NCBI GenBank assembly: GCA_046538485.1
Contig: JBKHIT010000043.1
Span: 1-41,914, forward strand
Origin: Candidatus Brocadiia bacterium
Lineage (GTDB): Bacteria > Planctomycetota > Brocadiia > SM23-32
Reading direction: 5' to 3'
Length of the DNA stretch: 41,914 nucleotides
The notes beneath the pieces were generated by a model, which saw only the letters and a list, made by a program, of their open reading frames with translations, was not told the DNA's origin and did not search any database. Numbering within the stretch: the stretch's first letter is position 1; each line of letters begins with the position of its first letter. Below, one piece after another: positions 2,653-25,200 of the stretch. The translations under genes were made by a program, and so were the position numbers.

Positions 2653-3801
2653 GTGGCACTAATGGTCGATACTGAAATCCCTCACGGAAATGTATGCGGC
2701 GTTTCTATTGTTGAGCGGGATTCGCTTGAAGAAATTCGATTTACACCCCATCCCCATGGGGGGCCGGAGTGCTTATGGTTCTGTTTCCGATTGCGCCGAA
2801 CGGAGGGCGATATCGGACAGGTACGAATCGTACTGGAGCATTTTGAAACGATACTCGGCGGAAATGATGTGCTGAAAATGCGTCCCGTGATGCGTCCTGC
2901 CGGAGGACACTGGCAACGATTGGACACGGCAGGCCCACGGGAGGGTTCTGACGGCCAGATTTCGGCCTGTTGGGAGCTGATGGTTGACGCCCCGGAGTGT
3001 AATATAGCAACTTGCTACCCTTATGGACCGCCTCATATCTCTTGTCTTCTGGAACAGACGGACGGATACTGGAAATCGGAGGATATTGGGGTAACACAGA
3101 AGGGGCGGAAGATTGCTCGTCTTCGAAATGAAACAGGCAGCGACCAGGAAAACAAACCCGGCATCTATATTATTGCGCGTCAGCACTCGGGAGAAGCACC
3201 TGGATCCTGGGTGCTCGATGGACTTTTGCGTCAGTTGGCTCAGAAGAATCGGCAAAACTTGCTTGTGTGGACCGTGCCCTTTGCCAATTTGGACGGCATA
3301 ATAGACGGTGATTATGGAAAGGATAATTTTCCTTATGATATCAACAGGGCGTGGGGTAACCCGCCGATGCGACACGAAACGCTCGTCATAATGCGGGACA
3401 TAGATCGTTGGATTTCCCGTTGTAAGCCTGTCTTTGGCCTGGATCTGCATGCGCCCGGGGCCTGTGATGACAAGGGGTTGTATGCCCATATGCCTGACAG
3501 ACAGGAATATCCCCAGCGGTATGAATGTGCTTTGCCGTGGGCGAAAGCAATGGGGCAGGTCCTGGGCGCAGAGTTTGCAGCAGCAGAGTTTCCCCAAAGT
3601 CACCAGTATGCATCCCGCTGGACCACGCCAAGTTTCAGCAGATTCTGCTTCCAACGCCTCAATAGCCCCGGTCTTTGTGTCGAAGTGCCCTACGGGTTAA
3701 CCCGCCAGATTATCATGACAAAACGGAAATATCGAGAAGCCGGTGGGCGCATCGCAGATGCTCTGACGGAACTGATATCCAGAAGCCAGTTACAGTCATG
3801 A
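2653..3801 (+). CDS. M14 family zinc carboxypeptidase (cytosolic carboxypeptidase/Nna1-like)
   Basis: ARQHSGE (HxxE), NLDG, DINRAW, LDLHAPG and C-terminal VEVPY. GTG start after GGGAGAG (ATG 2662 is an alternative). The 2494 start in the ORF track overlaps the tRNA and is not credible. Confidence 0.85.
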   Translation: MALMVDTEIPHGNVCGVSIVERDSLEEIRFTPHPHGGPECLWFCFRLRRTEGDIGQVRIVLEHFETILGGNDVLKMRPVMRPAGGHWQRLDTAGPREGSDGQISACWELMVDAPECNIATCYPYGPPHISCLLEQTDGYWKSEDIGVTQKGRKIARLRNETGSDQENKPGIYIIARQHSGEAPGSWVLDGLLRQLAQKNRQNLLVWTVPFANLDGIIDGDYGKDNFPYDINRAWGNPPMRHETLVIMRDIDRWISRCKPVFGLDLHAPGACDDKGLYAHMPDRQEYPQRYECALPWAKAMGQVLGAEFAAAEFPQSHQYASRWTTPSFSRFCFQRLNSPGLCVEVPYGLTRQIIMTKRKYREAGGRIADALTELISRSQLQS

Positions 3802-3837: not shown

Positions 3838-3867
3838 TTGACAAAATGATTACTGGAAGGATAGGAT
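3838..3867 (+). promoter_or_regulatory. Putative sigma70 promoter of the motor/TPR operon
   Basis: TTGACA (3838-3843), 18-nt spacer, TAGGAT (3862-3867), about 65 nt upstream of the exbD-like start. Confidence 0.5.
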
Positions 3868-3931: not shown

Positions 3932-4336
3932 ATGAAGGTCAGACGGAAAGACCGGGAAGCACCGGAAATCCCAACGGCGGCGTTGAGTGATATCGCGCTC
4001 TTGCTGCTGATTTTCTTTATCGTGACGACTGAATTTTTGGTTCAGAGGTCACTTCCTGCCGAGCTGCCCGCCATCACACCGGAAAAAGAAGAAGCCACTG
4101 AAGACCCCATTACAGTGGTGGTGGCTAAAGATTTTGTGTATCTCAACGAAGAACGCATCGAATTGGATCAGCTGGCCTCTTTTCTGGCGGGGAGGCTGGC
4201 CGGCAAAGTGAAACGCGAAGAACGGGCTGTGGTAATCGATGGCAGAACAGATGTTCCTTACCATCGCGTCGCAGAAGCCGTCAACGAAGTGACCCGGGCC
4301 GGCGGCATTCCAACAATAATGAAAGTTGAGGAGTAA
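3932..4336 (+). CDS. exbD: ExbD/TolR family biopolymer transport protein (copy 1)
   Basis: TM segment EIPTAALSDIALLLLIFFIVTT with the conserved Asp; periplasmic AVVIDGRTDVPYHRVAEAVNEV. Confidence 0.9.
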   Translation: MKVRRKDREAPEIPTAALSDIALLLLIFFIVTTEFLVQRSLPAELPAITPEKEEATEDPITVVVAKDFVYLNEERIELDQLASFLAGRLAGKVKREERAVVIDGRTDVPYHRVAEAVNEVTRAGGIPTIMKVEE

Positions 4337-4371
4337 TATCCATGTCTTTGAGCTGTGAAACCGGAGGACCA

Positions 4372-7206
4372 ATGTTCCGAACGCTGGCCTTGCTGATCCT
4401 GGCCGGGGTCTTTGTTGTGGGACCGGGACTGTTCGGTATGAGTGCCCATGCCGGAGCCCCGGATGTCTCGAAGATGTCCGAAGAGGAAAAAAAGAACCTG
4501 TCCGATCGACAGAAAAGGATCCTCCGACGTCAGATGGCGAGCCGGGAGAAAGAGGCGGCTGCTGCTTACAAAAACGCTGAAACCGCTTTTCTGGTCGGTC
4601 AATACGACAAAGCGATCGAAGAGTTCCTTGCTGTTGCGCGCGAACACGGCGACACCTCATACCGAATGCGGGCCGTATTGAGGGTGGGGGACGTATTTTA
4701 TCGACAGAAGAAATATGAACGGGCGATCAGCTACTACCAACGGGCGCTCCGTGTGCCCTCGGAACCGTGGTGGCCCAAAGAGTCCGCCGAAGATTACGCG
4801 CGAGCCGACTACATGATAGGTGTCTGTTATTACGACCAGGGATCCCTGAATCCGGCATTCGCCCATTTCCGACGGTTCGTCAAAAAACATCCCACCAGCA
4901 AATTGGTCGATCGAGCTTACGATTTCATTGGACGCGGCAATATGCGTATGGAACGGTACGGACAGGCCATCGAAGCTTTTCGAATGGTCGGGACTGCGCG
5001 GCTTGAGAAGAAGGCCCGGCGTACAATCTCCCCCGGGGAAGATCTCTACCTGCGGGTGACAGATGAAGACGTCGGACTGGCCAGCAAGCAGGGGACGATC
5101 CCGGTTCGGCTCAGCACCAGTTCAGGTGATAAGGAAAGGGTCGAACTGGAAAGTCTCGGCCTCGGTTCGCCAACGTTCCTCGGAACCATCAAGACCCGGC
5201 TCGGGGAACCACGGCTTACAAGAGCTCTGGATGCCGCTTATACCACCAAAACCGGACGTAAAATGGACGAATGGCTTGAGACTGCGAAGGAAACACGCAA
5301 AGAAGCGCAAGCGGTGCAGAAGAAGGTCCGGGCCGTCGAAAAACAGCTTGAACAGGCCAGGAAAGGCCTGAAAAACGAGGACGGAACCGAGAATCCGGAG
5401 GCCCGTCAGAAGGTCGACGCGCTGGAAAAGCGGAAAGCTGAACTCGAAAAACAAGTCGCAGACCTGACGGAAGCGGCTGATTCCCTGCAGAAGAGAGCCT
5501 ATACGACCCTCGATGAGGCATATTCAGATATCGAAGCCGTCCTCAAAGAGTGGGGTGTTGCCCGGATTGAAGACGAGGAAGAAGGGGACGAAACGGAAGA
5601 AGATTCGAAAACTGAGGAAAAAACTGCCGAGAAGACAGCAAAAGCGGCGAAAAAGAAAGATCAGGGCGATAAACTCAGCGACGTGTTCACGCCGCTGGAA
5701 ATCGCGGAGACGCGTAACGCAGTAAAAGAAACTCCCACCAGTGAGGAAAACTTCAGGTTCCGGCGGGCCCTTATGGAGTACTGGCACGAACAACTACTGC
5801 GGGAATATAAAACGCTTGATCTCACCGGCTCCGATACCATCACGGTGGAATACCTCGATCGACACTCCGGTGACGAAGATAATGTCACAAGAACCGACAC
5901 CCTGGGTGTTGCCTCCGACGCACGGATTGTCTGTCTCGGCCCGGACCTCAAAAGCCCCGTTCAGGCGGTTATTTTCGGCGATAACGTGCGGGTAAAAGTG
6001 GTGGATGCCGACCGAGACGCTTCGGATAAACCGGATACGCTGCACGTTGTCGTGGCCAGTGTCCCAAAAGAAGATGAACAACAAAAAGAAGAAGACGATG
6101 AAAAAGGGGAAGAGACTGAAGAAGAGGAGAGCCTGTCCGTAGATGTCACCGGCGGGGAAGAAAAAGAGCAAAAAAAACCAAAACTCATTCCAGAAGATGT
6201 TCCGAACACGAAAGTCACCCTGACCGAAACCGGAAAACATACCGGCGAGTTCATCGGTTCGTTCTCGACCCTTCCGCGAAAAGAAAACGGGACCGCCTCT
6301 GAACTCGGCCTTTCGGTTGAGCAAGCCGTCCGCATCGCCTACGAGGACGAAAAGACAAGCAGTTACGGCAAGGGCGGCTGGGTTGCGGTGGCAACAGTCG
6401 AAATCGTTCCCGGCTCGGAAGGTAGCCAGCAAGTGATTAAGATGCAGGAGGGTGAGCTGGATCGGCGGAGTGAACTTGAAAAGGGCATTGCACTCGGTAA
6501 ACTGGCCCGGGTTTATCAGGATCTGGGACTTAAAGTGGAAGCCGGCCGCACTTTCGATGAAGCCCTGAAAATTGTTAAAAAGGTGGCCCAGGCGGAACGT
6601 AATTCCGCCCTCGGCGAAGAAGCAACGTATCAGATGTGGGATCTGTATTTTGCCAGTGGAGACGAAGAGGCCGCCGCGGAAGCGTGCTCAAAATTGATCC
6701 GAACTTTCCCGGATAGCCCCCTTGCCGACGATGCCCTGCTGATTATGGGAAAGGCCGAGGAGGATCCGCGAAAAGCGATTGGACATTTCTCAAGACTTGT
6801 CAAACGCTACCCCGATTCGCCCCTCGCACCCGAAGCGCAGTTTCATGTGGCCGAACTGAAAGCGGAAAGGGGCCACTTTGATGTCGCGGCATTCGAAAAC
6901 TGTTCCAACAAATTCCCCGGCAGCAACTTCGCCGCCAAAAGTCTGTTGAAACTGGCCGAATACTACATGGGCCAGAGGGATTATAAACGGGCAAAAGATT
7001 ATCTGGAACGAATTACGCTGGATTTTCCCGATTTTGATCAACTGGACAAAACAACCTACATGCGCGGGGTGTGTGCCTACCGCATGGGCGACGTCCAGCT
7101 TTCCTATACGCTGATGCACGAGGTGATTGAAAAGTATCCCGGCACGTCTGTCGCAAAGTCCGCCGCGAAAATCGTCAAACTCCTCGCCACGAAATTGAAC
7201 CGCTGA
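4372..7206 (+). CDS. Secreted TPR protein (YbgF/BamD-like repeats) with two DxD beta-sandwich repeats and an inserted coiled coil, 944 aa
   Basis: GGAGG RBS before ATG 4372; signal peptide ending SAHA. N- and C-terminal TPRs (KKHPTSKLVDRAY, FPDSPLADDAL, YPDSPLAPEAQF); central PGEDLYLRVTDED and GDNVRVKVVDADRD repeats. Confidence 0.8.
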   Translation: MFRTLALLILAGVFVVGPGLFGMSAHAGAPDVSKMSEEEKKNLSDRQKRILRRQMASREKEAAAAYKNAETAFLVGQYDKAIEEFLAVAREHGDTSYRMRAVLRVGDVFYRQKKYERAISYYQRALRVPSEPWWPKESAEDYARADYMIGVCYYDQGSLNPAFAHFRRFVKKHPTSKLVDRAYDFIGRGNMRMERYGQAIEAFRMVGTARLEKKARRTISPGEDLYLRVTDEDVGLASKQGTIPVRLSTSSGDKERVELESLGLGSPTFLGTIKTRLGEPRLTRALDAAYTTKTGRKMDEWLETAKETRKEAQAVQKKVRAVEKQLEQARKGLKNEDGTENPEARQKVDALEKRKAELEKQVADLTEAADSLQKRAYTTLDEAYSDIEAVLKEWGVARIEDEEEGDETEEDSKTEEKTAEKTAKAAKKKDQGDKLSDVFTPLEIAETRNAVKETPTSEENFRFRRALMEYWHEQLLREYKTLDLTGSDTITVEYLDRHSGDEDNVTRTDTLGVASDARIVCLGPDLKSPVQAVIFGDNVRVKVVDADRDASDKPDTLHVVVASVPKEDEQQKEEDDEKGEETEEEESLSVDVTGGEEKEQKKPKLIPEDVPNTKVTLTETGKHTGEFIGSFSTLPRKENGTASELGLSVEQAVRIAYEDEKTSSYGKGGWVAVATVEIVPGSEGSQQVIKMQEGELDRRSELEKGIALGKLARVYQDLGLKVEAGRTFDEALKIVKKVAQAERNSALGEEATYQMWDLYFASGDEEAAAEACSKLIRTFPDSPLADDALLIMGKAEEDPRKAIGHFSRLVKRYPDSPLAPEAQFHVAELKAERGHFDVAAFENCSNKFPGSNFAAKSLLKLAEYYMGQRDYKRAKDYLERITLDFPDFDQLDKTTYMRGVCAYRMGDVQLSYTLMHEVIEKYPGTSVAKSAAKIVKLLATKLNR

Positions 7207-7263
7207 CAGACCGGCCAGATTTGCCGGAAAAAACAACAGAACGATCCAGGAGCTTTTTAAAAG

Positions 7264-10200
7264 ATGAGATATTCCATGAAAACGAAAAATGGACGAGTGC
7301 AGGCGGCTGCGCTCTCGCGGAGAAAGCTGGTCGCGTCGGTTGTGCTTCAAGTCGCGTTCGTGGCGGCGATTGCCGCGGGACTCGTGCTGGTGAAGACAGC
7401 CAAACCGCAGGAAAAACTACCGAAAGAGGCCAAAAGTGAAAAGATACTTGAGGAGTTTAAACACATCCGGGGATTTGCTGCGGCGGGACAACATGGTGAG
7501 GCCGCACGGGCCCTCCGTGAGTTCGTGGCGAAATATCCTGATTGGGAAAGAGTATCAGAAGCCACCGTTCTGCTCGGGAAAGAACTCGTTCTGGCCGGAG
7601 ATGTCTCTTCGGGCAAACAGTCCCTCCAGCGTTTCGTCCAGAAAAACCCCTCGGCCCCGCTGGTGCCCACCGCGCATTTTTACGTCGGTAAAGCTCAGGA
7701 AGCTCTCGGGGACTTCCCCGGAGCCGTGCTTTCCTACGACGTTGTCGTGAGCCGTTTTCCAGATCACAAACGGGCCCCGGAGGCGGCACTAAGTGAAGCT
7801 CTCATTGCCGGCAGGGTTCTGGGGAACAACCGCCGTGCCCGGCGGGTCTACGAGGATTTTACAACAAAATATCCCAAACATCCCCGTATTGCGGCCGTCC
7901 AGAACCACCTTGCGGTCATGGCGGAAAAGGGGAAAGGCAGAGCCGGCGGCCCGACCTCCGCGTTCATGCAAAAATGGCAGATCGCTACACCGTTCCCGAA
8001 CGCAAAAGGGAAAGGTCTCCTGAAGACCTATCCGCCTGAGCAAGGGGTTGACCTGGATGCCGCGTATGTGGGTGCCGGCAACGAAAAAGTCAGGTGGCAC
8101 AGATTGCCCGAAAAGGCAAAGAAAACGAACGGATATGTCGATCTGCAGGCGGGCTTTAAGATCAACGAAAATGTCTGCGCCTATGCCTACCACACTTTCC
8201 AAAGCCCCGAACAGAGAGACGGCACGCTGTATATCGGCAGTGACGATGGTGTCGCAGTCTGGTTTAACGGCAAGAAAATACTCACCCGAAACGTCACGCG
8301 TGGCGCTGAACCGGACCAGGAGCAAATTCCGGTCCACCTGGAAAAAGGACAGAATAGCATTCTGCTAAAAATAAGCCAGGGAAAGGGCGGGTGGGGCTTC
8401 TATTGTCGGCTGGATTACGAATTTGGGTGGGGACCTACGGCGGCTGTGGCGCTCTACCGTGATTATGCCGAAAAACATCCCGATGATGTCGGCGACCCGG
8501 TGCTGAACGGAGACCGGGCCGGCGCCGCGGCCGCGATGTGGCGGGCAGCCGAACTCACACAAAACAAACTGCATGACTCAGAAGCTGCCGTCAATCTCTA
8601 CAAAAAATACGAAGCGCTCCCGCGTTCAAAATCCGGCGAGGGCTACTACCGGGCAGCCCGGCTTTTGTGGCAAGAGAAAGATGATAGTGCCGCGGAGATG
8701 TTCGAGGCGGCGCTGAAAGCCCAACCCAACAATCTGAACTGGCGGTATGAATACGCCCGGTGGCTGAAAGACAAGAAAAAGAATAACGCAGCACAGAAGC
8801 AACTGTCTTACGTTGTGCGCAAGACCGAAAACGATAAACAGCTGGACCAGACCATCAAAATGATGGGCGCGGAAAATGTTCGAAAATACCTCGATGAAAA
8901 TCCCGGAGATTATGTGGTATTCAGGCGTTACCTGAGCTGGTACAGGGGCGGGGAAAAACGCGACGAGGGGCGTAAGATTCTGGATACATGGCTGAAACGA
9001 TCCGAGATCGATTGGAAAACGCAGATCGCACGGGAGTGGTTTGAATGGACCAAGGAACTGAAGGATTGCCGCCGGCTGATTGGCGCCGCGGAAGCGGAAG
9101 GACACATACAGGAGACCGCGCGAGCCAGTTTGCAGGCCACTGATAAACTGATCCACGCCAGGATGTTCGGGGAAGCAGCGAAAGAACTGGAAAAGTCACT
9201 GAAGAAATGGGGGCAATATCCCGATTTCCCGCGGCAAGAATTTGCCCGGAGGGTCCTCCGGATCGCCAGTTCCGAACCGCTGATGGTCCCAAATCCGGAA
9301 AAGAAAAAGGAGAAAAAGACAGACGGGGAGAAGGCCGATACGGATGGGGACGAAAACGAAGCGAAAAAACTCCCCGACAAAATTGTTTCCGAGAAAGGCA
9401 AAGCCGCCCGTAAAAAGGCGATAAAACTCCTCCGGGAACACGGACTTGACCGGACCGCCGGCGGGGCTGATGCACTGGCGCGATTGAGCCGCGAACTCAA
9501 CGAAGATGATGCAGCCGAAGTGACAAAACAGGCCGCCGTCGCTTTGATCGAGGCGGGCAAGTTCGGCCAGGCGGTAGGACATGTCGAATTTCTCCTGAAA
9601 AATGCGCCCCATACGGACGAAACCGTTGATGTCCTTTACGAAGCAGGGCGCCGGGGGCACAAGCCCTGGGGGAAGCATTGGAAATCGACGGTTCTCCCCA
9701 CAGCACAAAAAGAACTGAAACATTTTGAGAAAGCGAAAAAGCAGACAGAAGCTACGCGCCTGGCAAGGGTGAAACTTCTCCGTCTGTTCGACCCGAAAAA
9801 GTCCATCTCAGCCCATGACGAATTCCTGAAACACCACAGGGGAAGTCAGCAATCTGTTTGGGTGGCCCGCCATCGTTTCTGGGAAATCAATCGTTCTAAG
9901 AAGGATGTAGCGGATGCGATTACGGCTTCAATTCAGAAGGTGGAAAAGAATCCCGATATTGCTTTGCACATTCCGATACAACTGGTGCCGGCGGGGCGGA
10001 AGGGACACGGTGCGCTGGCTGATGCACTGGCGAAAGTTCTGAAACAAGTGAAAGGGGAAAAATGGGCGCAGTTGGCGCTTCAGGTGGCCCGCTTGGACAA
10101 ACAGCAAAACCGTATGGCTGATTGTATGCGTTGGGTCGAGAGAATTATTGCCAGACAACCGCAGAGCCGCGAAAGCGTCGAAGCGAAAAAGCTGGGCATA

Positions 10201-13200: not shown

Positions 13201-16200
13201 CTGTTCCTCGGCACAATTCGTACCGAACTCGGGGAACCTAACCCCAACGATAGGATCCTGCAGGTGTACGGAACCGACGTCATTTATGTAACCTACCAGG
13301 ACAAGTTTAAAGGTTTCACGGAGGGTGACGATTTGACGGCGGAAGACATTAAGGGCGAACGTAGCACCAGCCTGATCCAGGTCGTGCAGGATGCAGAATT
13401 GAAGGTCTCTCCGCGCGCGTTTGTCGAACGCGAAGAGGAAGCGGAAGACGAGATGTACCGTCAGAAGACCGAGGACGAGCTACGGGAGGAGAAACGGCTC
13501 CGGCAGCTCAGTGCCAGACTTCAGCGTGGAAAAGCGGTGGTGCGACCCGGAAACGCCGTGTATCTCAGGCTCCGAGACGGCGACCTGGACTCAAGCGGAA
13601 AGAAAGACCGCGCGAAGGTAAGAGTCTTTACTTATTCGCCCGGGCAGAAACGCTCTGAGAAGCGGCGACAGCGGGAACTTGCCCGGGCCATGAAAAACCC
13701 GATGGATATGCCCATCCGGCGGGATATTCCGTCCAACGGGTCCTTCTCCCACCACCGAACCGCCGCACCACCCCCGAACAATCGCCCGCGACTCGATTCG
13801 GTTGAGGTGTTTGTCGAAGAGATCGGTGCCCATGAAGGTATTTTCTACGGAACGGTTCAGACTGCCGTCAACGGTCCAACCGCTGTGGCATCCGACCATT
13901 CGGGCGAGCGGGTGGCGGCTTACGCAATCGATGGTGAGGGCGGAGCGGATGATGCCTGGATGGGATTCATCGATGGAAAACCCGATAAATGGATCGAAAT
14001 CGACCTGAAAGAACTCCATTACGTTAGCAAAATTACCTGGGATCGTGGAGAAGGCGCCGATGACAGGTATATGATCGATTACACCGTGAGTATGCGCGGA
14101 GAAGGCCCCCCGAAAAAGATCGAGAAGGAAGGCAACAAGTCGGCCCACGACAACGAAATTGCCCTCGAAAAACCCGTCCGATGCCGATGGATACGCTTCA
14201 CCGCTCACAAATACGAAGGGGATGCCCCGGCGATCAGCCACATCGAAATAGTCGGTTCCCGCGAAAAAGATGCCGAAACCAGAAAAGTCGTTCCCCCCGA
14301 AGTCTCACCGCTCGAACGGGCGCGAAACGATGTGCTGGAGTTCAACGTCGGCGATTGCATGGCCGCTGAAGTCGTGGATGACGAGAACCTCGACCCCGGC
14401 CACTCCGTTACTCGCCAGTCCAATCCATTGGGAGTGGCCTATGTCGACGGGCACATTGACGCCGTCCACCTTTCCTACGACGAAAACCGGGTGCGGGGCA
14501 GTGTCCTGACATATCTGGACCGGGAGAAACGACGGAAGCCCGTTTATTCCCGCCGAACCAAACGTGTTAAACCCGACGAAGTTCTTCAAATCGCCATTAT
14601 GGATCCCGACCTGGATGTCGATGATCGGAAGAACAAAGCGACGTGCGAAGTCTATAGCACAAGTGGAGATAAAGCTACGCTCGAGGCCAAAGAGATCGCT
14701 CCAACTGCCGCTGTGTTCGTGACCCGGATCCAGCTCTCCACCGATCAATCCGCTCAGGAGTCCGATATGCGGCTCTGGGTGCGTTCCGGCGACTATATCA
14801 TGCTCCGATACCGGGATGAGCAGAACCGGCATCCCGGACACGCCATCTATCGGGAGAGTTTCGTTTTCGCGGCCGATGACGAAGTCGCTCGTTTCCCTGA
14901 CGACCAGCTTGAAATCCGTGCACCGAAGGCCGGGGGGGAAAGTATCGAACCGCCGAACTGGACCTTTGCGCTTGTCGATCCCGACCGGGCGCTGCCGGGC
15001 ATCGATCGTGTGGAAATGGAAGCTCTGTCGTTTGCGACCAGGGATCACGCGCGATTCAATCTGTTATTGCGCGACCTGGACGGACTTTTCACAAGCAAGG
15101 TGCCGGTGCAGATTGCCGATAAACCTCACGTTCAGTTGCCCGAAGACGCGGACCCGACGAAACCCCGGAGAATTTACGCTCTTGACGAGGCATGGGGCTA
15201 CAGAAACCAGCGCCGAAGATCCGAAAATGAACAGAACGTGTTTCGAATACCGTTCTCTGTTCTGGGCGACGATATAGTATATCTGCGTTACACCGACCCG
15301 GAGGCAAAGGAGGCGGCGGGACGACAGTTTGTGTCCCTTGTCCAACCGCGTGTGCTGGACCGACTTCACAAACTCGGTGTGAATGTGCGCGAATTGCCTG
15401 AAGCCGCGGCCCAGGAAGGTATCACCGTCACCCTTCGCGATCCAGACGCCGCCTTGAAAAAGGCGCGACAGGAAAGATTGCAGAAGATCAAACGGGAGAT
15501 CGCCGCCAAGAAAATACAGTACCGCACGATGCTCCAGGATTATGAATCGACGCTGGAACGTATCGGAAAACGCATCGATGATTTGACGGAGCAGAAGAGC
15601 GGGAAAGAGGAAGATACTGAGGAGACGACTGAAACCCCGAAAGAAGTTATGCCGGAAGATGCCCCTCTGACGGCCACCGAAAGCGGCGGGGAAGATCTGG
15701 CCGCAGGCGGGTTATCGGCCACTGAAAACCTCATTCTCGCTGCTGCACTGCGACGCGACCGTGACGGTTTGACGGAAGGAATGCGGGCATTGAAGCGACG
15801 CCTTGATGCTCTGGGCAAATACGAGACCGCTGAAATTGAAGCCCAAATTAAAGAAGAACGGGAAGCGGTCCGACAAAAGGCAAAAGAAGAGGGCAAAACC
15901 GAAGAGAAAGAAAAATCCGGCGAAAAACCGGCCCCGTGGTACACGCTATCCGATTGGTGGAAGAACTGCGGAGGCCTCGTGCCGGGAACCACCCTCAACA
16001 TCCGCGTTGAAGACCCCCATCTCCAGGGCGAGAGCGCGAAAGTCCTTGTGTCAGTGCTCGGCGGACAATTGCCCCGGTACCGCACATATACCGCTGAGCA
16101 GGTGGACGGTAAAGTGGGTGTCTTTGAGGTCTCGGTGCCGACAACCGAAGGCGGTGGGGGCGAAAAAGCACTCAACCTCAAAGGGGCTGAGAATATCCTG

Positions 16201-17454
16201 CTCACATACAAGGATGATATGCAGACGGAGTTTACGAAACAACGGGTCAGTTACCTGTCGCTGGCCTCCGATGCGACCCTTCAGATTACGGGAGCGGATT
16301 TCCTCGACCAGAAGGAAAAATACCATCTCGGGGAAGACGTTTTCATCCTCATTCGGGACGCCGACATGGACAAAACCAGTTCCCGGGATTACGTCTGGGT
16401 GGAGGTGGAGTCCGGAAAGGGCGACCGCGAACTGCTGGCGGTTCGAGAAAGCCAGCCCCACAGCGGTGTGTTTCGGGGTGATATCGGGACCCGGTTCGGA
16501 AAGCCAGTTGAGAATGACGGAACCCTCTGCGCCGCTTTTGGCGGAAGTTTCAGCGTTCGTTATGAAGACCAACTGTGGCGCGGCGAGGGACCTGTCCCCC
16601 CAGAACTCAAAGCTACGGGCCATTTCGTCAAAGGCAGCAAAGGTACCGTTGAAATTTTTGCCCGCCAGCTCAAACGCGGCAAACTACAGCGGGATGTCCT
16701 GTTTAATACAGCCCTTGCGGAATACGAACTCGGTAAAAGTTCCACGGAGATGGGAGCCGTGCAACGCGGCGAGATGCACCTCACCGAAAGCCGTGACCAG
16801 TTCAATCTCTTGATCGAACAGTACCCGGATGATCCCGTCTGCGCCCATGCTACCTACTACCTCGGCAATATCTACTTCCTGCTCGGGGATTATCCTGCAG
16901 CGGTTCAGAGTCTCCAGCGGGTAATCGACCGCTGGCCGGACAGCAAGTTCAAAGCGAAATCGCTTTACAAATTGGGGACATGTCACCTGAAAGCCGGCAA
17001 ACGCGATAAAGCGATAGAGGCGTTCGTGAACCTTGCCTACCACCATAGCGAAAGCCCGCTGGTGGCGGAAGCTATGCTGACACTGGCCCAGCATTTCAGC
17101 AAAGAAAAACTGTACCATCAGGCGATCGGTATCGGTCAGGCCTTCATCCGAAAGTTCCCGGCTCACGAAAAAACGGGGAGTATATATCTGCGGTTGGCCG
17201 GTTGGTTGATTATGAAAGAACGGCTTCAGCATGCAGCGGCCGTTCTGGAGGACGCCGAAAAAGAACTGCCAGAATCCAAATATATGCCGGCCTATCTCTA
17301 CTGGCATGCAGACTGTCTCTTCAAGATCCACGGGAGCCGGAGCACCGAATACAAAAAAGGAATCATCCTCCTCAAGCGCATCACATACGATTACCCCGAC
17401 TCCAAGTGGGCGAAATACGCCAAAGCCCGTCTGGCTGAAGTCGACGTCGATTGA
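7264..17454 (+). CDS. Giant 3396-aa membrane-anchored multidomain TPR protein with two PA14-like modules, an F5/8 type C-like module, about six DxDxD beta-sandwich repeats and coiled coils
   Basis: Uninterrupted 10.2-kb ORF with an N-terminal hydrophobic helix and many xxYPxSxxxxxA TPR units. GSDDGVAVWFNG module (~7975-8415); APRDGTYHFWGHADD module (~10543-10777); AYAIDG..W..KWIEIDLKELHYVSKITW..CRWIRFT discoidin-like module (~13879-14253). Confidence 0.85.
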   Translation: MRYSMKTKNGRVQAAALSRRKLVASVVLQVAFVAAIAAGLVLVKTAKPQEKLPKEAKSEKILEEFKHIRGFAAAGQHGEAARALREFVAKYPDWERVSEATVLLGKELVLAGDVSSGKQSLQRFVQKNPSAPLVPTAHFYVGKAQEALGDFPGAVLSYDVVVSRFPDHKRAPEAALSEALIAGRVLGNNRRARRVYEDFTTKYPKHPRIAAVQNHLAVMAEKGKGRAGGPTSAFMQKWQIATPFPNAKGKGLLKTYPPEQGVDLDAAYVGAGNEKVRWHRLPEKAKKTNGYVDLQAGFKINENVCAYAYHTFQSPEQRDGTLYIGSDDGVAVWFNGKKILTRNVTRGAEPDQEQIPVHLEKGQNSILLKISQGKGGWGFYCRLDYEFGWGPTAAVALYRDYAEKHPDDVGDPVLNGDRAGAAAAMWRAAELTQNKLHDSEAAVNLYKKYEALPRSKSGEGYYRAARLLWQEKDDSAAEMFEAALKAQPNNLNWRYEYARWLKDKKKNNAAQKQLSYVVRKTENDKQLDQTIKMMGAENVRKYLDENPGDYVVFRRYLSWYRGGEKRDEGRKILDTWLKRSEIDWKTQIAREWFEWTKELKDCRRLIGAAEAEGHIQETARASLQATDKLIHARMFGEAAKELEKSLKKWGQYPDFPRQEFARRVLRIASSEPLMVPNPEKKKEKKTDGEKADTDGDENEAKKLPDKIVSEKGKAARKKAIKLLREHGLDRTAGGADALARLSRELNEDDAAEVTKQAAVALIEAGKFGQAVGHVEFLLKNAPHTDETVDVLYEAGRRGHKPWGKHWKSTVLPTAQKELKHFEKAKKQTEATRLARVKLLRLFDPKKSISAHDEFLKHHRGSQQSVWVARHRFWEINRSKKDVADAITASIQKVEKNPDIALHIPIQLVPAGRKGHGALADALAKVLKQVKGEKWAQLALQVARLDKQQNRMADCMRWVERIIARQPQSRESVEAKKLGISLFDRGFFAPQLTQKDAQNAYKWQMELFLDGEGVSHTIADVTGNVWKLACHPAYRKQRINRFGSLYMVSAHGKEGRPKNMRQFMTGLYARMPGDGIGPETKVENRASPFKGGDKFRIYRWGLLRAPRDGTYHFWGHADDWVGLSIDGRQYNFPARGGNFHAAVPLTRGLHMCQIAYIDFGGGYHMRLDWRPPTESDRVPRKRMRAGAQLFSPEYFPLILSESAAFNGAWGLKQWESYVKKFPDDRRGHMMLAELKTLADPKAGATEMLGMRKKYPSNPHFRERCADCLWRSGQKGRALEEYENLAAGNHRAVWKRSYNALYRSVFLGGKTPVGFDEQLADRVRAADSWGTWQKKVSSEGHWPATDGLRARNSAAGHLRTLERRATEMEESVSFVKTAISKEKAQLASAEKLANKKEAKKKVRAQARRAVGRSQDRLEMLNRELSVAQTTAKNARKRATAFRKELGIAEDAGPEEFYLDFAEKVVSEKSANPDAVYHIAQDLWDLKRKADARRFLKYVIHYSPHRHHIDWCADRLVELATDGENVAEAVEVLSNLGWRNPRDKHHANWLKRACEMAREAGEVYEYARNARVLARLHPKNNDLNEYVDRMGEVFEKAGNYVSAEHEYRRVIRHTRDRSRQRTARLSLAELYQKRNRPREALETLSKLVDITIPDDGKGRRRERRNVLPDGGGVKKNEQKEEDADALLLAARCYLDLEKKHLALEAYDRAAAQKTFGKKVKPERDLLIDLAKACLQTRRVMESEGKKGDMGEHEAVPPVILEQARKSLALIDTLFRFYADKMDPYQKTRATLVRADANIMMRNYPRAIEEIRKAKKEAGDSPARYLADLKMGEVHLATDNDREALRVFKKLAELNRKKVSPLALFWLGTTRLKMNEREKAIEAFRILWERYADNDLVREAVYAIAQTYAKQGAFLDAIRLYEAVGAINSAPRKKVVPGEVLTVKVWDADHYLGTGQYTIPVNVQAASGDVESMKLEMNKINHSLFLGTIRTELGEPNPNDRILQVYGTDVIYVTYQDKFKGFTEGDDLTAEDIKGERSTSLIQVVQDAELKVSPRAFVEREEEAEDEMYRQKTEDELREEKRLRQLSARLQRGKAVVRPGNAVYLRLRDGDLDSSGKKDRAKVRVFTYSPGQKRSEKRRQRELARAMKNPMDMPIRRDIPSNGSFSHHRTAAPPPNNRPRLDSVEVFVEEIGAHEGIFYGTVQTAVNGPTAVASDHSGERVAAYAIDGEGGADDAWMGFIDGKPDKWIEIDLKELHYVSKITWDRGEGADDRYMIDYTVSMRGEGPPKKIEKEGNKSAHDNEIALEKPVRCRWIRFTAHKYEGDAPAISHIEIVGSREKDAETRKVVPPEVSPLERARNDVLEFNVGDCMAAEVVDDENLDPGHSVTRQSNPLGVAYVDGHIDAVHLSYDENRVRGSVLTYLDREKRRKPVYSRRTKRVKPDEVLQIAIMDPDLDVDDRKNKATCEVYSTSGDKATLEAKEIAPTAAVFVTRIQLSTDQSAQESDMRLWVRSGDYIMLRYRDEQNRHPGHAIYRESFVFAADDEVARFPDDQLEIRAPKAGGESIEPPNWTFALVDPDRALPGIDRVEMEALSFATRDHARFNLLLRDLDGLFTSKVPVQIADKPHVQLPEDADPTKPRRIYALDEAWGYRNQRRRSENEQNVFRIPFSVLGDDIVYLRYTDPEAKEAAGRQFVSLVQPRVLDRLHKLGVNVRELPEAAAQEGITVTLRDPDAALKKARQERLQKIKREIAAKKIQYRTMLQDYESTLERIGKRIDDLTEQKSGKEEDTEETTETPKEVMPEDAPLTATESGGEDLAAGGLSATENLILAAALRRDRDGLTEGMRALKRRLDALGKYETAEIEAQIKEEREAVRQKAKEEGKTEEKEKSGEKPAPWYTLSDWWKNCGGLVPGTTLNIRVEDPHLQGESAKVLVSVLGGQLPRYRTYTAEQVDGKVGVFEVSVPTTEGGGGEKALNLKGAENILLTYKDDMQTEFTKQRVSYLSLASDATLQITGADFLDQKEKYHLGEDVFILIRDADMDKTSSRDYVWVEVESGKGDRELLAVRESQPHSGVFRGDIGTRFGKPVENDGTLCAAFGGSFSVRYEDQLWRGEGPVPPELKATGHFVKGSKGTVEIFARQLKRGKLQRDVLFNTALAEYELGKSSTEMGAVQRGEMHLTESRDQFNLLIEQYPDDPVCAHATYYLGNIYFLLGDYPAAVQSLQRVIDRWPDSKFKAKSLYKLGTCHLKAGKRDKAIEAFVNLAYHHSESPLVAEAMLTLAQHFSKEKLYHQAIGIGQAFIRKFPAHEKTGSIYLRLAGWLIMKERLQHAAAVLEDAEKELPESKYMPAYLYWHADCLFKIHGSRSTEYKKGIILLKRITYDYPDSKWAKYAKARLAEVDVD

Positions 17455-17456
17455 CC

Positions 17457-18692
17457 ATGAGCGAGAAAAACCTCCTCCAGTATGTCCGGCGCCATCTGCG
17501 GAAACTTTCCGAGAGGATGCGGAAGCTGTGCCAGCCCGCGGGGGACAAAATCCTTGCCGCCACCGAGCCCCTGAGAACGTGGCTGAAGGCAAAATGGCGC
17601 ATTTGTTCCGATAAGGTGACGGGCTGGATGAACCTGCGGGGGCCGAAGCTGAGCCAGCTGAACCAGCGGGTTCAGTTTAACCGTGAACGCTCGAAACGGT
17701 CTTTCTACGTTTCCATTTCGGTTCACGTAGCCGTTATCCTTGTCAGCCTGTTGATGACGTTTCTAAGCGCCAGAGGATGTCTTTACGAGGTGCCGGCGGG
17801 TGTTCCCCAGGGCAAGGGCAATGAACTGACCAAAGGGAAGGTCGAGCCGATTCGGGCGCCCAAAGTTGTCCGCCGGCGGCGGAGGGTCAGAAAATCACCG
17901 GTCCAGGTCTTTGAAATGCTGGAGGAAGTCGAACAGGAACAAGAACAGGACACGGCCAAGAATTTCTCGGACAACGTCGGCGTGCCGGGCGGGGTGGGGC
18001 AGGGCGCGGCGGCCGCCGGATCCCCGCATGGCACAAAAGTCGGTGGGAAATTGCATTTCTACCGGGTGAAATTTCGCGGGCGTGGGTGGAAAGCGAACTG
18101 GAAAGGCGCCAAACCGCTGATGAAAGAAGTCCTTCAGGCAAACGTTGTCAAAGAGGTCGCGGGGTTCAATAACGTCGTCTCCCTGGAAAAGCTCCCCAAG
18201 CATAGCGGCAAATATCTGCCGAATCTGCTGTACATGACAGGCACCGGGAAGATCCATGCCAACCGCCAGGAAATCGAGAACATGCGCAATTACTTGCTCG
18301 CGGGCGGGATGCTTTTTGCGGATAACAGCGGGGGAAATTTCCACCGGCATGTCGTGCGCTTCATGCGACGCGTCTTCCCCCACAGGAAATTCAAAGTCAT
18401 CGAATATGATCACGAAATTTACCGCGGGGGGACCATGCCGTATGCTATGGTGCGCGGTTGCCCGATCTACCGGGCCCACCGGGGACACGGCCCGGCGCTG
18501 GGAATCTGGGTGGGACCCAGACTCTCGGTTTTCTACAGCCGGGGGGACCTCGGCTCAGCATGGGCGACCGCGGGGATTTTCAAAGCCCGCAAACGCAAAG
18601 TGGAACGAGCATTCCGAATGGGGGTTAATATCGTCACGTACAGCTTGGTATACTATAAATATGGTGTGGACCAGAACACTGAAAATGAATGA
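17457..18692 (+). CDS. DUF4159-domain protein with TonB-like transmembrane anchor
   Basis: TM SFYVSISVHVAVILVSLL, then a Gly-rich linker. C-terminal LLYMTG...EIENMRNYLLAGGMLFADN...DHEIY...DLGSAW...AFRMGVNIVTY matches DUF4159 as I recall it. Confidence 0.8.
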   Translation: MSEKNLLQYVRRHLRKLSERMRKLCQPAGDKILAATEPLRTWLKAKWRICSDKVTGWMNLRGPKLSQLNQRVQFNRERSKRSFYVSISVHVAVILVSLLMTFLSARGCLYEVPAGVPQGKGNELTKGKVEPIRAPKVVRRRRRVRKSPVQVFEMLEEVEQEQEQDTAKNFSDNVGVPGGVGQGAAAAGSPHGTKVGGKLHFYRVKFRGRGWKANWKGAKPLMKEVLQANVVKEVAGFNNVVSLEKLPKHSGKYLPNLLYMTGTGKIHANRQEIENMRNYLLAGGMLFADNSGGNFHRHVVRFMRRVFPHRKFKVIEYDHEIYRGGTMPYAMVRGCPIYRAHRGHGPALGIWVGPRLSVFYSRGDLGSAWATAGIFKARKRKVERAFRMGVNIVTYSLVYYKYGVDQNTENE

Positions 18693-18702
18693 GGTGCCGA
18701 TT

Positions 18703-20469
18703 ATGCCGGCTGGAGACTTCAGAATAAAGCGGTCCCGATCCCACGCGATGTACCAGGTTTTGTCCGGCATTCTGGCCGTCATGCTTCTGGGGGTTGTTGT
18801 GGTCGTACCGGTGCGTGCCGCGGCCGAAGATAAACGGGCCGATAAACTATATGAAACGGCAAAGTCGGCCTACGAGATGGAGCGATGGGAAGATGCATGC
18901 AACAAATTTTACGAATTCATGGCCGCCGCGCCATACGATCCGAGAAATGCCGAAGCACAGTACCTGGTGGGACGCGCCTTCATGCACCGGAATTATCTCA
19001 ACAAGGCAATCACAGAGTTCGGTTATCTCGTGAAAGATTTCCCCAAATCACACTACGCGACGCTCGGACTTCATTATCGTTCGAAATGTTATCTTAAAAC
19101 CCGACAACAAGATAAAGCCATCGCGGATAAAGAAAAAGTGATCGAGCGCTCCGTGGAACATCGGTGGCGACATCAGCGGAAAAACCCGCTCAAAAAACAG
19201 GTCGGCACGAGCCACCGCCACGACGTTTTCTGGCTGGCGAAACATTATATTCAGGAGAAAGAATACGACAAGGCTATCTCTGCTTACCAGCATCTGCCGC
19301 ATGAACTCGAAGCTTTCCGGCATGTCGTGGATGTCTACTACCGGCAGGGCAGGTTCGATAAGATCAAAGAACTGATCGACGGGCTTGCGGAAAAACATCA
19401 CCATGCAGCGTTCCAGCACCTGATCGAGTTTTACGCGAAGAAAAAAGCTTATAACCAGTTGAAAGACATTTTTGTTAAGCTTCTTCAGACCAAAAACCCG
19501 GATCGCAAGACCGACGATCTGGTGCGGCGGACGGCCGAAAATTTCCGGCATTTCGGCATGGACAAATGGGAAAGTGCCATGCGGCTGGTGAGCCAGCACT
19601 ACGCCCGACAGGCCCGTTATGCTGACCGACGACTCTGCCAGCACAACTGGAAGGATATGAACTACCAGGACAAAATGGAGCTGTTCGTCATCAAATACAA
19701 AAAGGGGCAGTGGGTCGACTGGGTCCTGCGTCACAAGGGGATCACCCTCGAGCGCCATGGGAAACCCGAGGAGGCGAGAAACGATTACCGCAGAATCGGC
19801 CAGACCGCTATGGGGCACTGGTATGTGGCCGAGAGTTATCACGGCCGGTATGCGAAGAAAAAAGATTATAAAGCGGCAATCAAAGAGTACGAGAAACTGC
19901 GCAAAGCCTTTTATTCCCAGCACTGGTCGGCCCGAGCCCAATGGCGAATCGCTCACCTCTACCGGACCAAAATTAAGGATGTCGATAAGGCCGCGGAAGC
20001 GTTTCGCCATATTGCTAAACGGTGGCCTTCTCTGAAAACATCTGCCCACAAGAGACATCACCATATTCACGTGAAACTCCCGGAAGCTCGGCCGTATTGT
20101 CATAAACACTGGAAACTGTACGTAGCGCCAGCGGCCCGGCTCGCGCTGGGGGATACCCTTCGGGAGGCGGATCGGTTCGACGATGCCATCATGGAATACA
20201 AAACCCTGGTGATCAGGTACCGAAAAACCAAATCGGCCTCGCGCGGGGCCTACAGGACGGCGCTGTGCTACGAGGGATTGAAAGATCCCGATACGGCCAT
20301 CAAAGTGTTGAAATCGGTGCTGCGACGGTATCCCAAAACGGCTGCGGCGAGCGATGCGCATACCCGGCTGGAAGAACGATACAAAATACCTGATACGGAA
20401 GTTTCGGATGAGATTGATTTTTTCCGGGAAGCGGAGAAAGATTACCTGGAAAAACACGATCGACGATAA
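18703..20469 (+). CDS. Secreted TPR protein (YbgF/BamD-like repeats), ~588 aa
   Basis: GAGGTG RBS before ATG 18703 (ATG 18685 is an alternative); signal peptide ending VPVRA. TPRs include APYDPRNAEAQYLVG, DFPKSHYATLG and RYPKTAAASDA. Confidence 0.8.
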   Translation: MPAGDFRIKRSRSHAMYQVLSGILAVMLLGVVVVVPVRAAAEDKRADKLYETAKSAYEMERWEDACNKFYEFMAAAPYDPRNAEAQYLVGRAFMHRNYLNKAITEFGYLVKDFPKSHYATLGLHYRSKCYLKTRQQDKAIADKEKVIERSVEHRWRHQRKNPLKKQVGTSHRHDVFWLAKHYIQEKEYDKAISAYQHLPHELEAFRHVVDVYYRQGRFDKIKELIDGLAEKHHHAAFQHLIEFYAKKKAYNQLKDIFVKLLQTKNPDRKTDDLVRRTAENFRHFGMDKWESAMRLVSQHYARQARYADRRLCQHNWKDMNYQDKMELFVIKYKKGQWVDWVLRHKGITLERHGKPEEARNDYRRIGQTAMGHWYVAESYHGRYAKKKDYKAAIKEYEKLRKAFYSQHWSARAQWRIAHLYRTKIKDVDKAAEAFRHIAKRWPSLKTSAHKRHHHIHVKLPEARPYCHKHWKLYVAPAARLALGDTLREADRFDDAIMEYKTLVIRYRKTKSASRGAYRTALCYEGLKDPDTAIKVLKSVLRRYPKTAAASDAHTRLEERYKIPDTEVSDEIDFFREAEKDYLEKHDRR

Positions 20470-20503
20470 ACCGATGAAACTGAGGAAAGAAACGGAATAA
20501 CCC

Positions 20504-21172
20504 ATGATCGAATTGTTGAGACAGGGACGTTGGTTCATGATCCCTCTGCTGACCTGCTCGGTGGTGGCGCTGGCCATCATTTTCGACCGTTGGCTCTACC
20601 TGCGGAGCGCTTCTCAGGAGCAAGACGAAGTGCTTGGTACAATCGACGATCTGGTGGAAGAAGGGGATGTCGATGGGATCGAGGAGTACTGTCTGGATAA
20701 TCCCGGGCTGCTTTCCGAGATATTTCTGGCGGGAGTTCGGAAGTTCAAACAGCTCCGCGAAGAACCTAATCTCGATTTTATTCAGAGCGAAATCAACAAA
20801 ATGATGGAAGATGCCAGTATCCTGAACACAACGGACCTTGAATGTCGTCTGCCGCTGCTGAGTTCCGTCGGGAATGTGGCACCTCTGTTCGGTTTCGCGG
20901 GCACAGTGACCGGAATGATTAATGCCTTTCAGGAAATCGCGGCCACGGCGAGTCCCAGCGCCCAGGATGTTGCGTCGGGCATCCAGGAGGCACTTGTGAC
21001 AACCGCATCGGGACTCCTGATCGCCATACCGGCGGTGCTGTTCTACAACTATTTTACAGCGCAAATCGACAGGCTCAGTGTGAGAACCGAAGAGAGCGCC
21101 AACGGACTGGTGGATATGCTGGTGATGAAAGCCGTTGAAAGCCGCCGTCAGGCCGGTTCCGAAGGAGAATGA
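20504..21172 (+). CDS. exbB: MotA/TolQ/ExbB proton channel family protein
   Basis: TM1 WFMIPLLTCSVVALAIIFDRW; APLFGFAGTVTGMINAF; GIQEALVTTASGLLIAIPA. Confidence 0.93.
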   Translation: MIELLRQGRWFMIPLLTCSVVALAIIFDRWLYLRSASQEQDEVLGTIDDLVEEGDVDGIEEYCLDNPGLLSEIFLAGVRKFKQLREEPNLDFIQSEINKMMEDASILNTTDLECRLPLLSSVGNVAPLFGFAGTVTGMINAFQEIAATASPSAQDVASGIQEALVTTASGLLIAIPAVLFYNYFTAQIDRLSVRTEESANGLVDMLVMKAVESRRQAGSEGE

Positions 21173-21582
21173 TTGTGAGAGTCAAACGCTCCAAGAAAAC
21201 CGAGTGGCGGACTTCGTTTGCGAGCATGAGCGATATCGCGTTCCTGCTCATTATTTTCTTCGCGCTGGCCGGAAAGTTCACAAAAAGCAGCGAGAAAGAC
21301 GTTGTGCTCCCCAGCGCCGATATGGGGGAAAGATCACGCCCGCGTGAAATCACCGTCATTGTGACCAAAAACGGCGAATATCTGGTCAATGGTGTGAAGA
21401 AAGATCCCGAGGAATTGCAGCAGGAAGTGTCATTTTACATCGTGCCCGATGCCCCTAAAGAGAATAAAACAGTGACGGTTTTTGCGGACCGTGATGCCGA
21501 CTACGGAGCAGTGGCAAAAGCAATCGACGCGGTCAACCAGGCCGACGGATACCTTGAACTTGCCGTGCGAGAACAACGATAG
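21169..21582 (+). CDS. exbD: ExbD/TolR family protein (copy 2)
   Basis: ASMSDIAFLLIIFFAL TM with Asp; VTVFADRDADYGAVAKAIDAV; ATGA overlap with exbB. Confidence 0.9.
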   Translation: MIVRVKRSKKTEWRTSFASMSDIAFLLIIFFALAGKFTKSSEKDVVLPSADMGERSRPREITVIVTKNGEYLVNGVKKDPEELQQEVSFYIVPDAPKENKTVTVFADRDADYGAVAKAIDAVNQADGYLELAVREQR

Positions 21583-21590
21583 GAGTCATT

Positions 21591-22073
21591 ATGACAACCG
21601 GAATGAATCAACAAACAAAAAAGAGGACCGGCAGACTTAAACTCTGGCAGTTTTTCTTATTTGCCATTCTCATCCACGCCATCGTGATCGTGGGATTCAG
21701 CCCGAGCATCTATACGAAAGGCGAGGATACCAGCCCGGAAGGATTGATTCGGAAAGCGCGGAAACTTGCGAAAGAAGAAAAATATGAAAAGGCGCTCGAA
21801 GTGTATGAAGAACTGATGGCAAAAAAACCCAAAATACCGCAAATATTCGAAGAAGCCGAAAAAGAAATGCACAACGCCCGCCTGAAAATGCTCGAAAAAC
21901 AACGAGAAGCCGCACAGAAAGCCAAAGAAGCCAAAGAAAAAGCCGGGGAAGAATCCGAGGAAGGGACAGACGAAAAGACCAAAGAGGAGGGGGCGGACGG
22001 AACTGAAGAGGATGAGGAAACCGAACCCGAAACCAGCGGAGAAGATCTCCCCGAATTGCCCGGGCTGGAGTAG
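21591..22073 (+). CDS. Small single-pass membrane protein with TonB/TolA-like anchor, one TPR-like helix pair and an acidic tail
   Basis: AGGAG RBS; TM FFLFAILIHAIVIVGFS; ARKLAKEEKYEKALEVYEEL; E-rich disordered C-terminus. Confidence 0.75.
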   Translation: MTTGMNQQTKKRTGRLKLWQFFLFAILIHAIVIVGFSPSIYTKGEDTSPEGLIRKARKLAKEEKYEKALEVYEELMAKKPKIPQIFEEAEKEMHNARLKMLEKQREAAQKAKEAKEKAGEESEEGTDEKTKEEGADGTEEDEETEPETSGEDLPELPGLE

Positions 22074-25051: not shown

Positions 25052-25108
25052 CGTGTCTCTCCTCTTGCAGATGGAACTATGGGGCAACCTCTGCGGCTTC
25101 ACATTCAA

Positions 25109-25137
25109 TTAGACGTCAACTGCTATAGTTTTGTTCC
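25109..25137 (-). promoter_or_regulatory. Putative ECF-sigma promoter of the vWA gene
   Basis: Minus strand reads GGAAC-N17-CGTCTAA, about 58 nt upstream of ATG 25051. Confidence 0.55.
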
Positions 25138-25200
25138 CAGAAAATCCAGGACCTCCGGCAGTTCGAATCGCACTGTAGTTTTAGTCTCTGCAACGGGACA

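Follow-up and report, generated by a model that had tools for sequence, protein, structure and literature searches.

To our knowledge, the Ton and Tol systems are the only well-understood routes by which energy from the inner membrane reaches the outer envelope of Gram-negative bacteria. The Agl-Glt machine of Myxococcus combines one TolQ-like and two TolR-like subunits with large tetratricopeptide repeat (TPR) proteins, and the group of bacteria that concerns us here, in which Tol-Pal or TonB receptors are often lacking, has a poorly known envelope biology. Here we describe an eight-gene module of a Candidatus Brocadiia bacterium (Planctomycetota), at positions 3932-22073 of contig JBKHIT010000043.1 (41,914 nucleotides (nt) in all, referred to below as the window; this is contig C107 in an 88.3% complete genome of 5.19 Mb and 143 contigs), which probably encodes a single accessory envelope machine that is proton-driven and of the Ton/Tol/Agl kind, with two arms and a scaffold.

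Kindred loci are in print for PVC (Planctomycetes, Verrucomicrobia and Chlamydiae) bacteria under the name of 'vWA force transducer' loci (PMC12204202; Mol Biol Evol 2025). In the portions of that paper drawn on here, the transducers are made of an SHLS helix, a disordered linker and a von Willebrand A (vWA) head; SHLS-anchored non-TonB transducers are modelled on TolQ-like motors; the Tichowtungia locus has two transducers, and gliding motility is raised for it in the supplement; and the function of the loci is given as not known. Compared with these portions, our module is alike in joining a TPR gene to a tolQ-like gene and two heterologous tolR-like genes, and in the SHLS-type His of its transducer helix. 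It differs in its head, which is a DUF4159 domain with a glutamine-amidotransferase-like fold instead of a vWA domain; in having a second, headless transducer; in its three conserved TPR proteins, including a giant of 3396 amino acids (aa) with a discoidin domain; and in its order, in which the two ExbD genes stand at opposite ends. The original prediction, made from the sequence alone, had taken the machine to be a candidate undescribed one, which is too strong in view of the kindred vWA loci already printed. The locus is large and uncharacterised, and it is neither unique to the window nor wholly unprinted.

The eight genes are conserved as a unit

The list of open reading frames (ORFs) gave eight + strand ORFs, tightly packed between 3932 and 22073, which we annotated, together with a candidate promoter, as follows.

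3838..3867, + strand: sigma-70-like promoter candidate (TTGACA-18-TAGGAT, 10/12), upstream of the first gene
3932..4336, + strand: ExbD/TolR-like subunit 1 (ExbD1), 134 aa; Pfam ExbD; membrane Asp20
4342..7206, + strand: exported scaffold protein, 954 aa; signal peptide, N-terminal TPRs, beta-sandwich modules, C-terminal CpoB/YbgF-type TPRs
7264..17454, + strand: giant scaffold protein, 3396 aa; N-terminal membrane anchor, TPR arrays, discoidin, Ig-like beta-sandwiches, coiled coil, C-terminal CpoB/BamD-like TPRs
17457..18692, + strand: DUF4159-headed, TonB/TolA-like putative transducer, 411 aa; helix, linker, DUF4159 head
18703..20469, + strand: exported TPR protein, 588 aa, within ORF 18256-20469; CpoB/YbgF-type TPR module at its end
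20504..21172, + strand: TolQ-like ExbB proton-channel subunit, 222 aa; Pfam MotA_ExbB
21169..21582, + strand: ExbD/TolR-like subunit 2 (ExbD2), 137 aa; Pfam ExbD; membrane Asp; 4-nt overlap with exbB
21591..22073, + strand: headless, TolA-like putative transducer, 160 aa; A-x3-H helix, TPR-like hairpin, Glu/Lys-rich stretch, acidic C-terminal motif

From gene 1 to gene 8, the intergenic gaps are 5, 57, 2, 10, 34, -4 and 8 nt, and both the coordinates and the gaps thus bear out the earlier description of eight co-directional genes with overlaps or gaps under 60 nt. The single putative promoter of that description fared less well: a candidate is present at 3838-3867, and the region holds no more sigma-70-like sites than expected by chance (7 vs. 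a mean of 9.5, standard deviation 2.8, in shuffled sequence). Because such sites are not enriched over shuffled sequence, we regard this promoter as only plausible.

A second complete copy of the module lies in the same genome (contig C66:17940-36810; loci L008 and L009), with eight genes in identical order at 25-46% identity; the 588-aa protein and its paralogue are 27% identical over 589 aa, and the two giants only ~30% identical. When 30 relatives were searched with the DUF4159 protein, 19 had a match at E≤1e-10, and only two, one of them a same-family and the other a same-class genome, matched ahead of the DUF4159 domain at E≤1e-30. The same-family genome has the module in the order of the window with its giant split in two, and the same-class genome has it in a different order (TPR, giant, ExbB, ExbD, small ORF, DUF4159, TPR).

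A wider scan, which covered a single genome for each species and was queried with four aligned DUF4159 orthologues, returned 32 loci. ExbB and ExbD genes stand beside the DUF4159 gene in 25 of them, and the giant or its cut end is visible in 21 of these 25; the seven loci without motor genes comprise three contigs shorter than 4.5 kb and four weak matches. Outside the window's clade, the usual order is giant, TPR protein of ~530 aa, TPR protein of ~760 aa, ExbB, ExbD, ExbD, small protein and DUF4159 protein, and the carriers with a named taxon belong to the Planctomycetota, Lentisphaerota (Victivallales, Lentisphaerales), Kiritimatiellia and Omnitrophota. Conserved synteny in other genomes, on which the original prediction had been made to depend, was therefore found, with the gene set in 25 of 32 loci, in addition to the full paralogous copy within the same genome. 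The eight genes are one conserved unit.

The module is far from universal in these groups. The DUF4159 profile had matches in 15 of the 301 Planctomycetota genomes sampled (E≤1e-40; host genome included; only four candidates per genome were scored in this survey). In the class to which a Kiritimatiellia carrier belongs, it matched 13 of 61 genomes (E≤1e-30), and in that of a Victivallales carrier, 8 of 61 (E≤1e-40).

The motor subunits retain the residues of TolQ/TolR and ExbB/ExbD

All three motor subunits belong to their Pfam families by a wide margin (ExbD1, 72.6 bits, and ExbD2, 64.3 bits, on ExbD with a cut-off of 25.4; ExbB, 107.9 bits on MotA_ExbB with a cut-off of 22.9). On NCBIfam, every cut-off was missed: ExbB scored 135.7 bits on tolQ (cut-off 221) vs. 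77.4 bits on exbB (cut-off 206.2), and ExbD1 and ExbD2 scored 46.9 and 41.2 bits on tolR (cut-off 127.3; the best NCBIfam match of ExbD1) and 29.7 and 21.7 bits on ExbD_1 (cut-off 152.95). In alignments to the E. coli proteins (TolR/ExbD and TolQ/ExbB, from NC_000913.3), the membrane Asp of both ExbDs falls in the invariant Asp column of TolR and ExbD, and ExbB keeps the G-T, Glu and T-T positions of TolQ and ExbB; the motor residues named beforehand (Asp in both ExbDs; GT, E and TT in ExbB) are intact. Since the two ExbD genes of most related loci match ExbD1 and ExbD2 of the window respectively, the heterologous ExbD pair is old.

A quick, unfinished ExbB tree placed the 25 module ExbBs in one group with E. 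coli TolQ and ExbB (support 99), separate from three other ExbB copies of this genome. Those copies sit in clusters of other composition, namely PBP-like, VWA, ExbB, ExbD, ExbD on contig C36; TPR, ExbB, ExbD, ExbD on contig C7; and DUF2162, ExbB, DUF2149, CobN on contig C51.

Two putative arms carry a TonB/TolA-type helix

The DUF4159 protein has one membrane helix with an S-x3-H-x6-L motif, then a Lys/Arg-rich disordered linker and then the DUF4159 head, and carries cytoplasmic helices besides the membrane helix (ORF 17451-18692 encodes 413 aa; 411 aa from the ATG at 17457). At least 90% of 25 aligned module orthologues retain this helix His, and many relatives have four or five helices with the His in the last one. 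The 160-aa protein has a membrane helix with A-x3-H and belongs to a family of 131-236 aa that is encoded, in most relatives, between the second ExbD and the DUF4159 gene, the small-protein and DUF4159 genes being adjacent with small overlaps or gaps. Among 21 aligned members of this family, at least 90% have the helix His, an invariant Ser stands eight residues after its position, and all 21 have both a Glu/Lys/Ala-rich stretch like TolA domain II and an acidic C-terminal motif whose Pro is invariant. Outside the window's clade, a Tyr-x-Thr/Ser-x-x-Pro box ~20 residues after the His is also found in most members. The charged rod of the 160-aa protein is not followed by a C-terminal globular domain (TolA domain III) in Pfam, sequence or alignment, and its layout is, as judged from the sequence, that of the N-terminal half of TonB or TolA, minus the head. 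The original prediction had treated the DUF4159 and 160-aa proteins as accessories; because both carry a TonB/TolA-type Ser/Ala-x3-His helix, we consider them likely force transducers instead. A complex prediction for the 160-aa protein with residues 60-411 of the DUF4159 protein gave a score of 0.02 (mark 0.32), which speaks neither for nor against a contact.

The head was assigned to Pfam DUF4159 (PF13709) at 114.1 bits (cut-off 25.9; aa 202-399 of the ORF), and an AlphaFold2 model of the protein had a mean predicted local distance difference test (pLDDT) of 73.9, with head blocks mostly above 85. The best Foldseek match of this model was 4i66, a solved DUF4159 protein (E 2.8e-11; profile match E 2.8e-13); beyond it, there were only weak glutamine-amidotransferase-like, ThuA-like and flavodoxin-like folds. 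A vWA fold was not among the Foldseek matches listed for the head, and Pfam gives DUF4159 only. Across 25 orthologues, Asp289 in 'GG.(L/I)FAD', Asp318, His341, Asp364 and Trp369 are invariant (numbered from the ATG at 17457). Going by their conservation, the invariant polar residues could mark a binding or catalytic site; Cys is absent at the position of the amidotransferase nucleophile. We know of no role for the DUF4159 domain, and being the head of a force transducer, if true, would give it one.

These data bear on whether the locus is simply the printed 'vWA force transducer' locus, with the DUF4159 fold called vWA there and nothing new here. The gene logic is common to both (TPR, tolQ-like, two tolR-like and two transducers), as are the SHLS His and the box ~20 residues after it, at least as far as the consulted portions of PMC12204202 go. 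However, the word 'DUF4159' is absent from the supplement text of that paper and, in the literature searched, was found in the Pfam paper only, and giant TPR proteins are not mentioned in the same portions; the matches listed for the head comprise 4i66 and glutamine-amidotransferase-like folds and include no vWA; and true VWA_3-headed S-x3-H transducers beside ExbB/ExbD exist separately, both in this genome and in the Kiritimatiellia genome G031. We therefore regard identity with the printed locus as a serious possibility that is nevertheless on the doubtful side. The true vWA-type protein of this genome (contig C36; L005:10097-11038, minus strand) has 313 aa, with an S-x3-H helix, a Pro-rich linker and a VWA_3 head; its gene follows a PBP_like_2 gene and immediately precedes ExbB-ExbD-ExbD, and a search for the protein in five module-bearing genomes gave one weak match.

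A natural variant touches both arms and the motor. Neither arm has its His in the contig C66 copy or in the orthologous module of genome G005, and in the same two copies the Glu of the ExbB 'GI.EAL' motif is replaced by Gln, with the ExbD Asp retained; this Glu is present in 22 of 25 module ExbBs and is Met in one. The joint loss of His and Glu would fit residues that work together, and it is only a hint because it represents one evolutionary event. The His-less, Glu-to-Gln paralogue is a ready comparison for arm-motor coupling.

Some family members have additional domains. A 944-aa DUF4159 module protein (L012:8192-11026) has a cytoplasmic FHA domain at its N-terminus, which also matches the cytoplasmic domain of YscD and, from its family assignment, hints at phospho-dependent control from the cytoplasm. 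Four members of the headless family (L015:8516-9187, L016:8633-9226, L030:8504-9214 and L033:3691-4371) have an extra N-terminal zinc-ribbon-like segment (Cys-x-Cys...Cys-x2-Cys) on the cytoplasmic side.

Three large TPR proteins share a CpoB/YbgF-type module

Pfam TPR families were found in all three large proteins, and all three exceeded the cut-off of NCBIfam tol_pal_ybgF (TIGR02795, 90.1 bits), with 130.4 bits for the 954-aa protein (best stretch, aa 810-900), 203.1 bits for the giant and 106.3 bits for the 588-aa protein. They had been predicted as a 944-aa TPR, a 3396-aa TPR/lectin and a 588-aa TPR protein; the families are confirmed, and one length needs amending, as ORF 4342-7206 encodes 954 aa, or 944 aa if started at the second ATG. 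The N-termini read as a membrane anchor in the giant and as signal-peptide-like in the 954-aa and 588-aa proteins; no lipobox was seen at the N-termini of the three. The 954-aa protein has orthologues in 21 aligned loci, and D-x-D and 'ET.PHSG.F' motifs are common to it and the giant.

When the giant was scanned in 13 pieces, Pfam gave TPRs at ~aa 70-500, 1450-1900 and 3170-3396 and an F5_F8_type_C (discoidin) domain at aa 2208-2328 (37.2 bits, cut-off 28.2), and matched nothing in the 13 pieces between the TPR arrays and the discoidin domain. A protein atlas gave only sub-threshold leads for aa 2000-3150, to discoidin-type domains, and PDB profiles matched the C-terminus to CpoB (6g5s) and YbgF (2xev), both at E ~3e-11, and to BamD. 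An AlphaFold2 model of aa 2200-3396 (mean pLDDT 63.4) showed beta-sandwiches, a long helical stretch and a TPR end; its first Foldseek match was a Nitrosopumilus S-layer protein (8c8m, E 3.6e-9), followed by designed TPR proteins and then by 9hmf_K. Homologues of the giant form fourteen protein clusters at 50-62% identity, and the named sources are all metagenome-assembled genomes of Planctomycetota.

The last of these structural matches is a scaffold protein of the Campylobacter jejuni flagellar motor (PDB 9hmf chain K), with which the TPR part of the giant aligns at E 7.9e-8; both are periplasmic TPR proteins beside a stator of the MotA/ExbB family, although the resemblance is a generic TPR one, a structural alignment with no sequence relation shown.

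The module is neither canonical Ton nor canonical Tol and coexists with both in one genome

None of the 21 window ORFs scanned with Pfam matched TonB_C, TonB-dependent receptor, TolB or Pal, as had been stated for the window, and the whole genome (88.3% complete) is likewise without TonB_C, the receptor barrel (PF00593) and TolB_N; two OmpA-domain genes lie on its other contigs. Together with the missed NCBIfam cut-offs for TolQ, ExbB, TolR and ExbD, these negatives uphold the view that the module is neither canonical Ton nor canonical Tol. The likenesses to Tol-Pal are that the module ExbB scores best on TolQ, that one putative arm is a TolA-like anchored charged rod and that CpoB/YbgF-type TPR modules are present; in contrast to Tol-Pal, the module misses the equivalog cut-offs, has no TolA domain III and no TolB or Pal in the window, and carries its TPR modules within very large multi-domain proteins. 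With Ton it shares motor genes of the 5:2 type and an S-x3-H anchor helix on a transducer, whereas it differs in having two different ExbD genes and in the absence of TonB_C and TonB-dependent receptor from the window and genome.

Five module-bearing genomes were tested for the canonical systems. TonB_C was present in three of the five and TolB_N in none, and the TolB_N profile is insensitive here, because one of the five has a TolB-like PD40 gene. The Kiritimatiellia genome G031 has the module, a TolQ-TolR-TonB_2-PD40 locus and an ExbB-ExbD-TonB_C locus; it also has a TPR-ExbB-ExbD locus with a VWA_3-headed S-x3-H protein (L056:4402-5862) and, at a further locus, an S-x3-H protein with an alpha/alpha-toroid-like domain at its end. 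These bacteria have several cassettes of the type 'TPR + motor + variable-headed arm', and the module is one of them. Given its patchy occurrence and its coexistence with Tol and Ton loci in G031, we take it for an accessory machine and not for a Tol-Pal substitute. The idea of a general replacement for Tol-Pal was rejected for this coexistence and for the low frequency of the module.

In a separate observation, the proteins encoded at L019:16799-18292 and L054:4450-6021, downstream of TPR-TPR-ExbB-ExbD-ExbD, have a head like the alpha/alpha-toroid of squalene-hopene cyclases and prenyltransferases, and the L019 protein has an S-x3-H helix; judging from domain similarity, the alpha/alpha-toroid may be a further head type of such arms.

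A putative machine with two arms and a periplasmic scaffold

Our reading of the module as one proton-driven machine builds on its gene content, its conserved linkage, the motor residues, the His helices, the head fold and the CpoB-type TPR ends, all of which are direct observations. By homology, a pentamer of the TolQ-like ExbB and an ExbD1/ExbD2 heterodimer would make up a 5:2 inner-membrane motor. Two arms would take the place of TonB or TolA, docked on ExbB through their Ser/Ala-x3-His membrane helices: one would be the headless TolA-like protein, with its charged rod and acidic C-terminal peptide, and the other would be the disordered Lys/Arg-rich linker ending in the DUF4159 head. The three exported proteins, each with a terminal CpoB/YbgF-type TPR module, may form a periplasmic scaffold around motor and arms, to which two of them would add Ig-like beta-sandwiches and the giant a discoidin lectin domain. 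The motor would then pull on or rearrange this scaffold against the wall or outer layers, or would apply its force to a partner in the wall or outer membrane. The same motor would thus be wired to two different arms and to ~4,900 scaffold residues (954 + 3396 + 588 aa).

What such a machine would do is a matter of tentative preference. The original prediction gave polymer uptake, surface-fibre or matrix handling and surface motility as examples, all of which are guesses. We lean, short of even confidence, towards a Tol-like output, in which the module organises or tethers the envelope as an optional extra, rather than towards a TonB-type import through a gated barrel. Next in preference, though unlikely, is a Ton-like import machine in which motor and arms energise the capture or uptake of a polymer, e.g. 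a sulfated glycan, with the discoidin and Ig-like domains of the giant binding the substrate and an outer-membrane channel encoded elsewhere. The discoidin (F5/8 type C) domain itself would suit this, as would a patchy, multi-copy distribution like that of substrate-specific loci, paralogous giants that are only ~30% identical, and the heparinase II/III-like, arylsulfotransferase-like and DUF3604 proteins encoded in the window. Yet the genome (88% complete) yielded no TonB-dependent receptor barrel and the conserved gene set includes none, and the glycan-related neighbours in the window lie outside the conserved module in other loci.

By analogy with Agl-Glt, the module could also be a surface-motility or adhesion machine, which we consider very improbable. 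The subunit count agrees (one TolQ-like and two TolR-like), large TPR proteins are common to both, and gliding is raised for the Tichowtungia locus in the supplement of PMC12204202. In the module, however, no TonB_C-type Glt-like protein, outer-membrane barrel or cytoplasmic platform is visible, in a comparison that includes no search for Glt homologues.

Several observations weigh against the envelope-machine reading that we prefer. The quick ExbB tree does not resolve the module from E. coli TolQ and ExbB, and a long branch misplaces MotA in it; the conserved gene set is without an outer-membrane or wall-binding component; and the His and Glu changes of the paralogue mean that at least one lineage can do without the motif. 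A role tied to a niche or a substrate would account for the patchy distribution no less well than envelope organisation would, and the same holds for the two to four copies that some genomes have.

Beyond this, we entertain, as a rather improbable extension, a third kind of proton-driven envelope machine, in which the arm pair pulls a giant lectin-bearing TPR/Ig scaffold and so moves or holds periplasmic polysaccharide in bacteria without TonB-dependent receptors. If this were true, the contig C66 paralogue would be a differently coupled version of it.

A Zorya-like defence reading was dropped; PADLOC gave nothing except two weak matches (E ~2e-4).

Other genes of the window

Downstream of the module, a 1209-aa ORF (24122-27751) has both a GNAT acetyltransferase domain (aa 456-557) and a short match to DUF3604 (aa 1086-1122), and is followed by genes for a heparinase II/III-like protein (28720-30837, minus strand), a weakly matching oligosaccharide-amylase-like protein (35826-38096) and an arylsulfotransferase-like protein (40268-41371). 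In the other loci compared, the glycan-related genes of this downstream region are not part of the conserved module. A full-length NAD-dependent DNA ligase occurs twice in the genome bin, in the window (32720-34762) and on contig C36 (L005:2647-4680), each gene within ~11 kb of an ExbB cluster; the doubling may reflect either a true duplication or an artefact of binning (contamination 4%).

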